Of a stretch of DNA of 11,806 bases, positions 936-11,806 are shown piece after piece. The notes under the pieces are model-generated. The model did not search any database, was not told where the DNA came from, and worked only from the letters and a program-made list of their open reading frames with translations. The DNA is from an uncultured bacterium (GTDB lineage: Bacteria > Abyssobacteria > SURF-5): contig CAZSKP010000002.1 in the NCBI GenBank assembly GCA_964607485.1, forward strand, positions 1-11,806. The letters run 5' to 3'. The position numbers were made by a program, and so were the translations under genes. Within the stretch, counting starts at the first letter, position 1, and every line of letters begins with the position of its first letter.

Positions 936-979
936 TTTTCTCTTGTGAAATAACTTGAGTTAAAACGCCCTCCGGGATA

Positions 980-1230
980 TTGGGGACAGACACCATATTT
1001 ATAATCATAACATGTGTCATAAAAATATGTTTCATATCTTACTTGAAAGTATGAATGAGAATATTTATTGCCTTTCATGAAATATTTCCGTTAGTTCCGC
1101 TCATTTCGAGAAATCCAGGGAGTGGCAGGCCGATTTGGTGAAGCTGGTGAAGCTAAGGCACCCCATGAGATGTCGGCGTAATATATTAATAATACAATAC
1201 TTAGATGATATAATGTGGTGTCTGTTCCCA
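980..1230 (+). mobile_element. Non-autonomous, internally deleted (MITE-like) derivative of the Y1/RAYT-like element at 11038->11806
   Basis: Terminal inverted repeats TGGGGACAGACACCATATT (981-999) and AATGTGGTGTCTGTTCCCA (1212-1230), 17/19. 980-1000 is identical to 11038-11058. 980-1090 aligns ungapped to 11038-11148 (about 70/111 by hand). Degenerate first (1103-1126) and last (1126-1159) codons of the transposase are present. AT-rich relative to the flanking genes. Confidence 0.85.
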
Positions 1231-1271
1231 CATTGGAGGAATGATTCCAATCAGGAAGGCAAGCCGAAGGG

Positions 1272-3464
1272 TCAGCGCATCTGTTCTTTGACGGCGCGCA
1301 CGACGCCGCCCGCTCGGAAGTCCTCGATCTTGCAGTAAGAGGAGCCCATCGCCCTCGCTATCCTCTGCGCCATCGAGGGGGAGGTGGAGGCGTTGCGGAA
1401 GACGGAGAACCTTCTTTCCTCGGTGTCGATGACAAGCGTCTTGATTCTCTTGTCGTCTCTTATCATCTTGGCGATTTCGAACAGCTCGTCCAGAAGCGCG
1501 GAATAGCCCGGTCCTTCGTAAGACCTGTCGCGCCTGACGCCCACGTTCGCCTCGCCGTCGGAGATGAGGACCATCAAGGGCATCGTGTGGCTGTCACGGC
1601 GCATGTGGTTCGCCAGCAGTTCGTGTGCCTTCAAAAGCCCGTGACCGAGAGGCGTCTTGCCGCCGGCGGGCAGGTCTTCGAGAAGCTTCTTTGCCAGGTC
1701 GATGCTGTTGGTCGGAGGGAGCAGCACCTCCGCCTCGTCTCCCTTAAACGTCACGAGCGCCACCCTGTCGCGCTTTTGATATGCGTCCAGAAGCAGGCTT
1801 ATCATCGCCGCCTTGGTTTCGGTCATGAGGCGGGTGCCCATCGACCCGCTCGCGTCCACGACGAAGAGCAGCAGGCTGCCGGCTTTCATCTCGCGGACTT
1901 TCTCGCGGATGTCGGATTCCTCTATCGCTATCGCCACGTCGCGTCTTCGACGGTTCTTTTGATGGGGCGCGGCGGCGCGGATAGTGGCGTCGAACGCCAT
2001 GTCGTCGTTGCGGCGCTCGGGCGTGCTGCGCACGTAGCGGCCCGCCTTCCGCAGGGTTCGCGTCGGCATGCGGCGGCCGCTCTTCTTGCGCACGGTTCGG
2101 TCCCTGTCGAGGAGGAGTGGCGGCACGCGGAACGTTTCGCCGACTCCGAACAGCCGCTCTTTGCATTTCTTGTCTCGCGCCTCGCCCTCGTTTCCCAGCA
2201 TCTGGCTGTCGGCGCCCGGTTCGAGCTTCCCGGCGTAATCGGGTGTCCGCTGGTCGTCGTCGCCCATCATCGCGTTGGAAGCGCTTGCCGCATCGCCCTC
2301 CTCCGCGGAGGACTCATCGTCCAGCGTCAGTTGCTCGGCGTCAACCTGCACCGACTCGCTTTCATCATCCTCGGGGTCGGGCCTGTCGGCCTTGTGGTCC
2401 TGTTCTCTCGCCATCTCCTCGGCCAGCATCCTCTGGAAATCCTCAAGTGTCTTCTTCGGAAGATTCGTGTTGCGGGACCGATGGGGCAAAACGAGCGCCG
2501 CAGCCCGGCTCATGTCGTCGAGTGTGGGAACCAGCCGCAGGCTGAACGCCGCAATGGTCTTGGCGGCCTTTTCGAGAAAAATGTCGGCGCGGTGACCGTC
2601 CACCTGGTTAAGCAGGCAGACCTGTGAGATGAACGCGCGCATTCGGTCCGGGATGAATACGCGCGGCAGCAGTTCCCTCGCCTTTCTTATCCTGATTCTC
2701 ATGGCCTCCTGCCGAGGCGCCCATTGTTCGCAGAAACCCGCGGGGTCGGTGTCGAACGCCTCCCGCCGCTTCACCACCTCGACCCGCCGCTCCGGGTCGG
2801 GGATTCCCTCGATGCCGACGCACAGGCCGAACCTGTCCAGGAGCTGGGGCCTGAGCTCGCCCTCCTCGGGATTCATCGTGCCCACGAGCGAGAACGCGGC
2901 CGGATGCGCAAAAGAGATGCCCTCGCGCTCGATGATGTTTATGCCGGTGACGACCGTGTCGAGCAGCAGGTTGACTATGTAGTCGTCCAGCAGGTTGACC
3001 TCATCGACGTAGAGGATGTTCCGGTTGGCCGCGGCCAGGATGCCCGTCTCGACCCGTTTCTCGCCCGCGCTGAGCGCATGCTCGAAGTCGATGCTTCCGA
3101 CGACCCTGTCCTCAGTCGCGCCGATGGGGAGGTTTATCACCTGCGCCTTGCGCCTCTCCACGGGAAGCTCCGAGCCGCTCGACAGGCGTTCCCGACAGTT
3201 CAGGCACATCTTTTCTTTCTCGCGGGGATGGCAGCCGAACGGACAATCCGCCACCACCTCCGCCTCGGGCAGCAGGTCGGCGAGCGCCCTGACGGCGGTC
3301 GACTTGGCCGTACCCTTCTGACCCCGCACCAGCACGCCGGAAAGCGACGGGTCGATGGCGTTGAGAAGCAGCGCGAGCAGAAGCTGCTCCTGCCCGACGA
3401 TCGCCGTGAATGGATATATCGGCCTCCCGAGAGCTCTCCATCCGTTTCCGTTGCTCTTCTTCAT
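1272..3464 (-). CDS. Mg/Co chelatase subunit D-like protein (BchD/ChlD family: AAA+ module, acidic linker, vWA domain)
   Basis: [10 protein letters not shown], Walker [10 protein letters not shown], Walker [31 protein letters not shown], acidic linker (DPEDDESES...[10 protein letters not shown]), vWA MIDAS motif [32 protein letters not shown]. Confidence 0.9.
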
Positions 3465-4507
3465 TTGGTCACCGACACATTGTGTCTGAGCACCGAGGCT
3501 ATGCGCTCGCGGTCGAGCACAACGTCCTCGAACGGCTTGCGCCTGACGCGGTGCTGAAGCGCCATGTCGGCGGATTCCTCGAGGTCCTCGTGTGTGACCT
3601 CGGTCCGCTGGTGAAACGCGGCCACCGTCTTCGCCGTCTTCATCATTATTATGTCGGCCCTGTGGCCGTCCACGCCTATCTCAATCGATATGTGCGCTAT
3701 CTTGTCCAGCATCTCGTCCGAAATTCGCACCTGCGGAAGAATCTCGCGCGCGTGAACGATTCGGTCGCGCAGCTCGGTCTCCGCGCGCGCCCACTCTTTT
3801 ATGAACGCGTTGGGATCGTCCTCGAACGCAACCCATCGCTTGACGACCTCGACGCGCTGCTCCGCGTCGGAGATGCCCTCGATGTTCACGCACAGGCCGA
3901 ACCTGTCCAGAAGCTGAGGCCTGAGCTCGCCCTCCTCGGGGTTCATCGTGCCCACGAGGATGAACTCGGCCGGATGCGTGTAAGAGACGCTCTCGCGCTC
4001 GATCGAGTTGACACCCATCGCCGCCGAATCGAGCAGCACGTCCACGATGTGATCGTCGAGGAGGTTGACCTCATCGACGTAAAGGATGCCCCGGTTGGCA
4101 TCGGCCAACACACCCGGCTCGAAGCGTTTCTCGCCCTTCTTTATCGCGTGCTCGAGGTCGAGCGTGCCCACCACCCTGTCCTCGGTGGCGTTGACGGGAA
4201 GGTTTATCACCCGCGTCTGCCTTTCCTCAACCTCGAGCTCCACCTTCTGACGAAGCTTGTCGCGGCATTGAATGCACATCTTGTGACGGTCGTCGGGGTC
4301 GCAGTGAAACGGGCAATCCTTGACGACGCGGAGATTGGGAAGGAGCACCGCGAGCGAGCGCACGGCCGTGGATTTTGCCGTGCCTTTCTCCCCGCGTATG
4401 AGCACGCCCGAGAGCTTGGGATTGATGGCGTTCAACACGAGCGCCAACTTCATTTTTTCCTGTCCCACGATTGCAGTAAATGGAAAATTCAGCATTGAAG
4501 CTCTCAT
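3461..4507 (-). CDS. Mg/Co chelatase subunit I-like AAA+ ATPase (BchI/ChlI family)
   Basis: [75 protein letters not shown] 10 nt before the ATG. The stop overlaps the downstream start (ATGA, 3461-3464). Confidence 0.92.
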
Positions 4508-4747: not shown

Positions 4748-5479
4748 ATGAACCCCGGAGAGATCAGTGACGCCGTTTGCCGGAAATACTCGCGGGTGGC
4801 AAAGCATCCCACCGAGGCATTCGGCTTTCCGGTCGGATGCGCATTCGCCAAGAGCGTTGGCTATCCGACAGAGGTATTGGAACGCCTGCCCAGATCGCTC
4901 ACCGAATCGTTCACCGGCGCCCACAATCCGCTGCTTTTCGCCGATCTCAGGCCGGGCGAAGTTGTGCTCGACCTCGGTTGCGGGGCGGGGCTCGACATGT
5001 ATCTCGCGGCGGTTTCGGTCGGTCCCGAAGGATTCGTGCACGGGCTTGATTTCTCATCGGATATGATTGAGAAAGCGAGACGCAACCTCGCGGAGTTGGG
5101 AATACGCAACGTTGATTTTCACCACGCGCCCGCGGACCACATTCCCCTGTCCGACAGGTCGGCCGACGTCGTCATCAGCAACGGCATCTACAACCTTTCA
5201 CCTGCGAAGGAACCGATTGTCGCGGAGGTCTTCAGAGTGCTCAAACCGCAAGGTCGCACCGTCCTGTCGGAGATAATCCTGAAGAAGCCGTCGGAGGAAA
5301 AAGCCGCTTGCAGCCTTGAAGACTGGTTTAAATGACTTGCCGGCGCGTTGCCGGAACGGTCGTTTCTGGGTTTATTTGAAAGCGCCGGCTTCAAGCAAGT
5401 GGAACTGCTTTCCACCCTGCGCAACGCGAGAACCAAGAACCCTCTGGCAATTATCGCCAACGTCAGAGCGATTAAATGA
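4748..5479 (+). CDS. ArsM-like class I SAM-dependent methyltransferase, probable selenoprotein (UGA 5333-5335 = Sec, 243 aa)
   Basis: LRPGEVVLDLGCGAGLD, VGPEGFVHGLDFSSDMIEKAR, DVVISNGIYNLSPAK, EVFRVLKPQG. After DWFK-TGA the frame continues LAGALPERSFLGLFESAGFKQVELLSTLRNARTKNPLAIIANVRAIK-TGA(5477-5479), matching the ArsM W-x-x-C-x-A-G-A-L...AGF C-terminal segment. Confidence 0.85.
5340..5369 (+). promoter_or_regulatory. Candidate bacterial SECIS element
   Basis: Hand-folded hairpin CCGG-c-GCG-tt-GCCG-[GAA]-CGGT-CGT-tt-CTGG just after the in-frame UGA. The apical loop begins with G, 18 nt after the UGA, with a bulged UU. An alternative fold (CCGGC/GCCGG) is also possible. Confidence 0.6.
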
Positions 5480-11006: not shown

Positions 11007-11125
11007 GACGCCGCAAGCCGATTAATTTGGGACAAATTTGGGGACAGACACCATATTTTAGGACATAAGACCTTTATTAACAATTTGTTATTAACATCGA
11101 CCTTGGATACAGATGAAAATATTAT

Positions 11126-11154
11126 TTGACTTTCCTGCAGTCTTTCCTTAACAT
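11126..11154 (+). promoter_or_regulatory. sigma70 promoter of the transposase, predicted leaderless transcript
   Basis: TTGACT (11126-11131)-N17-TAACAT (11149-11154). The ATG at 11161 lies 7 nt after the -10 and there is no Shine-Dalgarno sequence. Confidence 0.6.
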
Positions 11155-11160
11155 AACTTC

Positions 11161-11806
11161 ATGCCGAGAATAGCCAGGGTGGTGGCCACCGGTCTTCCTC
11201 ACCACATCACGCAAAGGGGCAATCGCCGGGCCGATGTGTTCCTTGACGATGAAGATCGGTTGAGCTATCTGGAACTGCTGAAGCGATACTCTCAGAGGCA
11301 CGGCTTGGAGATTCTCGCCTACTGCCTGATGTCTAACCACGTCCATTTTGTGGCGATCCCGCGGGAATCATATTCGCTTGCGCGTACGTTTGCCGAGACA
11401 CATATGCGCCACGCGCGGCACGTAAATCGCAAGCAGGAGCAAACGGGACACTTGTGGCAGGGGCGGTTCTACTCGTGCGTTCTCGACGAGCTGCACGCTC
11501 TAGCCGCCGCGCGCTATGTGGAATGCAACCCTGTGAGGGCCGGGCTGGCGGAAAAGGCGTGGGATTACCCGTGGTCGAGCGCGCGCGCTCATGTGGGCGA
11601 GGTGTGCGACGACCTGCTTTCGGAGCAATGGCCGTCGCGCCAGCTTCTGGCTCAATGGCGCGACATACTCACGGGGCCCGACCCCGAGACTGAAACGGAC
11701 GCCCTTCGCTCTTTCACCCGGACCGGGCGTCCCCTGGGAGGCGAAAGCTTCATCGCAATGGTCGAGCGCATGACAGGCCGTTCCGTGAAGCTGAAGAAGT
11801 CGGGCC
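11161..11806 (+). CDS. REP-associated tyrosine transposase-like protein (Y1_Tnp, IS200/IS605 TnpA superfamily), 3' truncated by the window
   Basis: Not in the ORF track because there is no stop in the window. Translation: MPRIARVVATGLPHHITQRGNRRADVF...AYCLMSNHVH (HUH)...GHLWQGRFYS...RYVECNPVRAGL (catalytic Tyr)...YPWSSARAH...TRTGRPLGGESF...VKLKKSG. Confidence 0.93.
   Translation, partial: MPRIARVVATGLPHHITQRGNRRADVFLDDEDRLSYLELLKRYSQRHGLEILAYCLMSNHVHFVAIPRESYSLARTFAETHMRHARHVNRKQEQTGHLWQGRFYSCVLDELHALAAARYVECNPVRAGLAEKAWDYPWSSARAHVGEVCDDLLSEQWPSRQLLAQWRDILTGPDPETETDALRSFTRTGRPLGGESFIAMVERMTGRSVKLKKSG

Follow-up and report, generated by a model that had tools for sequence, protein, structure and literature searches.

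The 258-nt segment at 977..1234 (+ strand) of the window, by which we mean the whole 11,806-nt stretch of DNA that was analyzed, is what is left of a small mobile element that lost its gene long ago, and it has no evident function. Alignment with a gene-carrying relative that begins at 11035 shows that the segment derives by internal deletion from a TIRtron, a class in which, according to the text of Di Nocera, De Gregorio, and Rocco (2013, PMC3733652), inverted repeats bearing the motif GGGGWSAS frame an HUH/Y1 gene. The literature already contains TIRtrons, this motif, and gene-less TIR dimers, and 977..1234 is a fresh example of this named class and not an element of a new sort.

The left end of the element (977..1000, + strand) is an imperfect palindrome whose axis, at 988, lies in the GGGGACAG motif, which fits GGGGWSAS. 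Its right end (1212..1234, − strand) is a palindrome with its axis at 1223, and the distance between the two axes is 235 nt. A sequence-only reading of the window had noted a 17/19 inverted copy of the left end, which is present at 1212-1230; the ends are inverted as it had stated, but they are palindromic rather than a plain inverted repeat, and the limits of the element extend to about 977 and about 1234. Between the ends, all on the + strand, are remnants of the 5′ untranslated region and promoter (1001..1102, collinear with 11059-11160), what survives of the initial transposase codons (1103..1125), the deletion junction (1122..1128), and a remnant of the 3′ end of the gene (1126..1152) that aligns with 11774-11799. 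As read from the sequence, the promoter remnant comprises a −35 remnant at 1068-1073 and a decayed −10 at 1091-1096. The loss of coding sequence, put at about 590 nt by the sequence-only reading, comes to about 588 nt in our alignment, and the two sides of the junction appear to have a short microhomology in common. The GC content of the element is 36%, compared with 57% for the genome, and the ORFs that cross it are incidental, leaving it with no coding capacity.

The identity of 980-1000 to 11038-11058 is complete (21/21), and similarity is not limited to this 21-mer, because blocks of the interior align with both the 5′ and the 3′ part of the TIRtron above the level of shuffled sequences. 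The ungapped alignment of 980-1103 with 11038-11161 contains 76/124 identical positions, among them the 27/35 reported for 1055-1089 and 11113-11147, which share its offset of 10058. Once the ends are taken away, local alignment of the interior with the 5′ part of the TIRtron scores 34, a value reached by 0/1000 dinucleotide shuffles (maximum 29), 0/3000 random genome windows (maximum 28), and none of 85 other TIRYT loci (maximum 29; TIRYT denotes the HUH/Y1 transposase). The position of the transposase ATG (11161) is occupied by ATT (1103-1105), and the alignment then jumps to the 3′ end of the transposase gene, as had been proposed; this second block scores 28, a value reached by 0/1000 shuffles and 1/3000 random windows, with a best score of 29 among the 85 other TIRYT loci. 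The 3′ block is modest by itself and becomes convincing only together with its collinear position.

These modest scores (34 and 28), one of which is exceeded at another TIRYT locus, would suit an element that is simply a REPIN-like dimer of two ends, with AT-rich filler that resembles a TIRtron through composition and chance. The end-dimers of G004, a genome of the same family and another genus, are consistent with this idea, as they have no detectable TIRYT remnant: among 19 gene-less regions of that genome, only one (L080) matches the TIRYT profile. Chance filler is difficult to reconcile, however, with the collinearity of both blocks, the 5′ one lying at zero offset from an identical end, with the failure of any shuffle or genome window to attain the 5′ score, or with the presence of the 3′ block in a second copy of the element (score reached by 0/1000 shuffles). 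We regard this explanation as largely refuted and give it scarcely any weight. Derivation from a TIRtron by internal deletion, which the sequence-only reading had proposed for the HUH-transposase element family, is thus supported. That reading had also named the element 10 kb away as the source. Membership in the same family stands, but because the interior is only about 54% identical, the deletion event is old and the TIRtron at 11035 is a relative and not necessarily the parent. The ends are conserved far better than the interior (21/21 versus about 54%), as had been claimed, and recognition of the end by the transposase would fit this pattern.

The gene-carrying TIRtron has its left end at 11035..11058 (+ strand, axis 11046), outside which lies a truncated stutter copy of the same end (11023..11034, +). 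A σ70-like promoter is read from the sequence at 11126..11154 (+; −35 at 11126, 17 nt, −10 at 11149), and the TIRYT gene begins at 11161 and continues past the end of the window (11161..11806, +). The promoter ends six bases before the ATG, with similar spacing before the TIRYT genes on contigs C38 and C6 of the same genome (G000) and in G004, and the window gene is probably leaderless. In the window, C38, C6, and L063 genes alike, the −35/−10 pair ends 6-7 bases before the ATG, giving all four a leaderless appearance. The distance from left-end axis to ATG is about 45-55 nt in most related loci and 115 nt in the window TIRtron.

The TIRYT protein matches Pfam Y1_Tnp (9e-14) and scores 79.1 bits against NCBIfam REP_Tyr_transpos, just below the cut-off of 80; its score against transpos_IS200 is 21.7, with a cut-off of 55. 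Its motifs (NHVH, WQ, YVECNP, and WSS) are those of TnpA-Y1 subclass 2.1, with the HUH motif at H60-V-H62 and the catalytic tyrosine at Y119. The structure model is confident (pLDDT 94.8) and has three C-terminal helices, and the best match of both the model and the profile is E. coli TnpA-REP (4ER8). A Pfam search of the protein matched no helix-turn-helix tail. NHxH, YxxNP, and SS occur together in 67/77 intact TIRYT relatives, and under a strict pattern 33/77 carry what we take to be an AT-hook-like tail.

Inverted ends are present downstream of the transposase gene, past the N run that follows the end of the window, at C2:11939-11954 and C2:12067-12082. The left end of the TIRtron matches GGGGWSAS at 8/8 positions, and these right ends at 7/8 (three G). 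A tandem duplication covers the final 128 nt of the TIRtron, right end included (C2:11744-12130), and several truncated end copies come after it. In the duplicated piece, the TIRYT frame closes eleven codons past the last codon of the window. A contig from sequencing run X1, which may come from the source sample, stops at 11781, 30 bases into the exact repeat, which is what a real duplication would be expected to cause in a 31-mer graph. The two further TIRYT genes of the genome, on C38 and C6, have their own end variants and are 59% identical; no right end was found in a search of about 500 nt past the C38 gene.

A second gutted copy lies at C2:185710-185950 and aligns with 977..1234 with an E value of 4.5e-18 (74% over 171 nt). 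Both copies have the same junction, ATT in place of ATG, an altered −10 region, and a 1-nt insertion in the 3′ block, so the decay of start codon and −10 box described for 977..1234 holds for each. The −10 regions of the two copies are identical at 26/31 positions, compared with about 60% identity to the TIRtron. The 5′ interior offers 120 columns free of gaps, in which 27 sites are common to the gutted copies only and 16 and 14 to one copy and the TIRtron; here the copies are 63% identical to each other and 54% and 53% identical to the TIRtron. In the 3′ parts, the shared-site signal is neutral (1/2/2 and 5/7/3 sites), and the 3′ block is 82-86% identical among both gutted copies and the TIRtron. 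Compared with the TIRtron alone, the 5′ interior of the second copy gave no significant similarity (score 19, attained by 217/1000 shuffles). These alignments show that the two gutted copies have a common origin. Because the junction and the loss of the start codon are shared, the deleted form was copied at least once, and the simplest reading is a single deletion followed by long-ago copying of the gene-less unit.

It could instead be argued that the gutted copies are relics that lost their genes in place, either as two insertions that each became gene-less or as one that host recombination duplicated, and that the transposase never moved the gutted form. Independent deletion derivatives do occur, since L080 has a different breakpoint; microhomology could favor a recurrent breakpoint; and the identity of the copies to each other exceeds their identity to the TIRtron by no more than a moderate margin. 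The history of the site adds no sign of movement: the RmlC-like gene is not beside the chelatase gene in any of five relatives, for which 1.5 kb upstream was compared and no empty site was seen, and no joint that skips 977-1234 is among the 15 joints listed for four runs from one study, most of which cover the site thinly. Loss in place nevertheless leaves unaccounted for the junction, the lost ATG, the −10 change, and the 1-nt insertion that the copies have in common, and the likeness between the two loci stops at the ends of the element, which argues against a larger segmental duplication. We consider such relics improbable, and prefer one deletion followed by copying.

The full account that we favor, and hold to be probable, is therefore one gene deletion, decay, and copying of the gutted unit, most likely in trans. 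The alignments show that some 590 nt of the transposase gene disappeared from an ancestral TIRtron of the same end type, apparently through a single deletion at short microhomologies, whereas its two ends, its promoter region, and the codons at either extremity of the gene were kept. Decay of the start codon and −10 box followed, and the shared junction and derived changes show that the gutted unit was copied one or more times, which produced the two diverged copies on C2; the element at 977..1234 presumably arrived at its site by insertion. HUH/Y1 enzymes bind hairpins in single-stranded DNA, nick via a 5′-phosphotyrosine, and rejoin strands, according to the text of PMC8266576. By analogy, a TIRYT would bind the short imperfect palindrome of the end on single-stranded DNA, nick it via its catalytic tyrosine, and join the strand into another intergenic site with no fixed target duplication, in the manner of IS200/IS605 and REP-associated enzymes. 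That a TIRYT acting on the end palindromes copied the gutted unit in trans is, in our judgment, somewhat better than an even prospect. The interior would be neutral and decay, and the ends would stay conserved because only units with recognizable ends keep being copied or re-templated.

We characterized the ends further in related TIRYT loci, taking the best 80 of 583 in the genome collection. An inward-facing pair of the core motif was found in 53/80 (25 had no pair and 2 were dropped for short flanks) under a pairing rule that had no chance control; an unconstrained inverted-repeat search finds the same motif in most loci. Each end of the 53 other loci is an imperfect palindrome of about 23 nt whose axis is fixed within the core: at 7-12 bases from this axis, pairing averages 0.56, compared with 0.22-0.39 when the axis is shifted. 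Left ends (n = 53) have 4.30/7 pairs, compared with 3.13 ± 0.15 when halves are swapped among loci, and right ends (n = 52) have 3.67/7, compared with 2.95 ± 0.14; 0/2000 swaps reach either value, in a test that ignores the relatedness of the loci. These comparisons show that the arms of the ends covary to remain self-complementary. In 977..1234, the 7-bp stem of the right end is perfect and differs from the family consensus by a double (compensatory) change (−5.2 kcal/mol, z −2.19), and the left end has one surplus T in its outer arm and folds weakly, like its shuffles (z −0.11). As the left hairpin is no better than shuffles, it is equally possible that a dimer uses the palindrome as a double-stranded site.

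Flanking direct repeats showed no excess over expectation at 51 TIRtron loci (4-mers, 22 versus 17.8; 5-mers, 3 versus 6.2; 6-mers, 0 versus 1.7); the longest is 2 nt at 977-1234 and 4 nt at the second copy. There is one 6-nt target-duplication candidate, at L066 of G004. Truncated copies of the end, of at least 8 nt, lie outside 41/102 ends and inside 4, with 4.1% in swapped flanks, and at 10 nt the figures are 29 outside, 1 inside, and 0.5%; these counts use 102 of 106 ends (4 dropped), and assembly artifacts could account for some of the copies. These stutters start at the outer boundary in 31/41 cases and have stopping points scattered between −6 and +13 of the axis, a spread from which no fixed nick position can be read. 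They are present at the window TIRtron and at the second gutted copy and are not clear at 977-1234. We judge it an even question whether such truncated outer copies are scars of nicking and repair at the junction of element and host.

The genome contains 12 matches to the 16-nt end motif (at most 2 mismatches; 0 in the control), including a solo end on C8. It has no near-identical copies of the element: of the window end type there are two gutted copies and one solo end, all old. Solo end motifs of the three TIRtron types lie at C3:62534, C4:134801, C8:44643, C11:84641, and C33:36402, some of them beside GTAG-type palindromes. A generic scan of the genome for end-like hairpins was unspecific (27 matches, and 27 in the reversed genome) and was excluded from the counts.

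No same-genus relative is among the relatives listed for this genome. A search of 40 other genomes with the element DNA gave end-sized matches only in G004, plus two weak matches in one distant genome. In G004 there are 67 matches to the end motif (2 in the control). The 20 of its regions that we compared comprise one TIRtron with its gene in two frames, six end-dimers with axes 58 nt apart, five longer pairs (83, 104, 138/196, 245, and 309 nt), and eight with no pair under a strict pattern. In the 309-nt unit, L080, the final third of a TIRYT gene survives (profile positions 148-210, E 7e-12); by its different breakpoint, this unit is an independent deletion derivative. The 58-nt end-dimers in G004 (L063-L082) have variable AT-rich linkers, and many begin directly after a stop codon. 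The same genome carries a second motif family, with about 30 matches (C5, C30, C84, and C121).

Some features of the interior could suggest that the remnant was retained for a function, whether as a small RNA or as a regulatory site, perhaps in the role of a decoy or antisense regulator of the transposase. Around the former start codon and the junction, a core of some 55 nt is 83% identical between the copies (44/53), compared with 56% elsewhere (72/129), an unevenness of decay that also counts against our favored account, although the nominal p of 0.0006 applies to blocks that were picked after looking; the 3′ block is similarly well preserved among all three sequences, and promoter-like sites are somewhat enriched (5 versus 1.2 ± 1.1). 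Against this, neither copy retains the original −10 box, the best Rfam match is 20 bits where thresholds are 50-100, which is not credible, and the two-sequence consensus folds are weak on both strands (−12.8 and −6.1 kcal/mol; 166 columns). The fold of the whole element (z −2.9) is accounted for by the pairing of its ends. The interior was also not found in 10 other genomes of the class, and scans of metagenome contigs with exact patterns, which miss diverged copies, found 0. We consider a retained function very unlikely, and a neutral interior remains our reading. A terminator scan found 0, and the idea that the element had split a terminator hairpin is unsupported.

Published descriptions place the element among known systems as follows. 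Like the TIRtrons of PMC3733652, the window family has GGGGWSAS inverted ends at a similar distance from the gene. The gene-less TIRtron ends of that paper occur singly, as dimers, or in clusters, some of them partly self-complementary, and 977-1234 and C2:185.7 kb each hold an inverted gene-less pair of the same ends, as a TIR dimer does. Its accessible text does not describe dimers that arise by internal deletion of the gene, target-site duplication, or stutter copies. More generally, internal-deletion derivatives, arm covariation, and stutters were not found in the accessible text of the TIRtron and subclass 2.1 literature.

The TIRYTs of Di Nocera 2013 correspond to TnpA-Y1 subclass 2.1 in the text of Quentin et al. 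(2018, PMC6006769), and subclass 2.1 to RAYT group 1 (Bertels et al., 2017, 10.1101/119735). The window TIRYT has the subclass motifs (NHVH, W[EQ], Y--NP, SS) and longer C-terminal tail, a length near the subclass median of 238, and a likewise low copy number, with about 59% identity among its three copies in the genome. The text of PMC6006769 mentions a C-terminal Bac_DnaA_C, HTH_23, or HTH_28 domain, reported for all 20 subclass-2.1 TIRYTs, or else a 2.1.1 extension, and no REP-like structure flanking subclass 2.1. The accessible parts of these surveys present subclass 2.1/RAYT group 1 as mostly single-copy and not associated with REPs or REPINs (PMC6006769, 10.1101/119735), and only RAYT groups 2 and 3 as REPIN-associated, per Bertels and Rainey. 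The present family differs from these descriptions in its covarying palindromic arms and gene-less dimers. The REPIN-RAYT systems of groups 2/3, as described in the text of 10.1101/2021.07.10.451892 and PMC8266576, likewise consist of inverted short palindromes, gene-less and intergenic, near a cognate HUH enzyme, and single-strand cleavage chemistry is presumed in both. REPINs, however, are GTAG-footed, have palindromes under about 130 bp apart, and reach high copy, whereas 977-1234 has no GTAG foot, 235 nt between its axes, and 12 motif matches in the genome; it also keeps gene remnants, and the TIRYT gene itself is framed by the ends.

The MITE label given by the sequence-only reading fits in part. 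PMC3733652 quotes a definition of classical MITEs as non-coding elements of 70-300 bp with terminal inverted repeats of 15-30 bp, which 977-1234 satisfies in size and ends, and its derivation from an autonomous element is also MITE-like. It differs in that its cognate enzyme is HUH/Y1, not DDE, and in that no target duplication and no burst of near-identical copies were found, there being only two copies, 74% identical over 171 nt. Target-site duplication is typical of classical MITEs. PATEs are non-autonomous derivatives of IS200/IS605; the IS200/IS605 enzymes have Y---Q where the window TIRYT has YVECNP, and their left and right hairpins are distinct and non-inverted.

The gutted element bears on a question raised in Di Nocera 2013 and Quentin 2018, of whether TIRYT enzymes move their ends and in what way inverted ends serve an enzyme with single-strand chemistry. 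A gutted copy that was duplicated after gene loss argues for action in trans. The hairpin axis, the absence of target duplications, and the stutter scars provide concrete substrates and predictions for a cleavage assay. A bolder proposal, which we offer tentatively and think rather less likely to hold than to fail, is that group 1/subclass 2.1 enzymes have REPIN-like satellites of their own, in which internal deletion leads, by way of forms such as 977-1234 that retain gene remnants, to the 58-nt end-dimers of G004, the ends are cryptic imperfect hairpins, and the stutters at the host junction are a nick-and-rejoin footprint. If this were true, 977-1234 would capture an intermediate stage in the emergence of a REPIN-like family and would supply defined substrates for a never-assayed HUH class.

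Other features of the window and its counterparts were observed in passing. A different REP-like inverted-repeat unit of about 105 nt lies at 245-352, in the gap that separates the gene at 2-226 from the RmlC-like gene; it has 70 BLAST pieces in the genome, several of them full-length at 80-91%, and very high depth in sediment runs. In G006, a genome of another genus, L165:2050-2270 carries a GTAG-type palindrome flanked on one side by a related end motif and on the other by a weaker inverted counterpart of that motif, just upstream of the promoter of the orthologous RmlC-like gene and near the position of the element in our genome; the site near this gene is possibly a shared hot spot. The region 1272-4507 contains adjoining chelatase-type AAA+ genes, ChlI-like and ChlD-like with a vWA domain, which have a 300-nt repeat in common (79%) and do not adjoin the RmlC-like gene in five relatives. 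At 4748-5479, a methyltransferase ORF (4748-5335) stops at TGA, and its frame appears to run on to about 5479; the read-through frame presumably resembles selenocysteine-containing arsenite-methyltransferase-like proteins.
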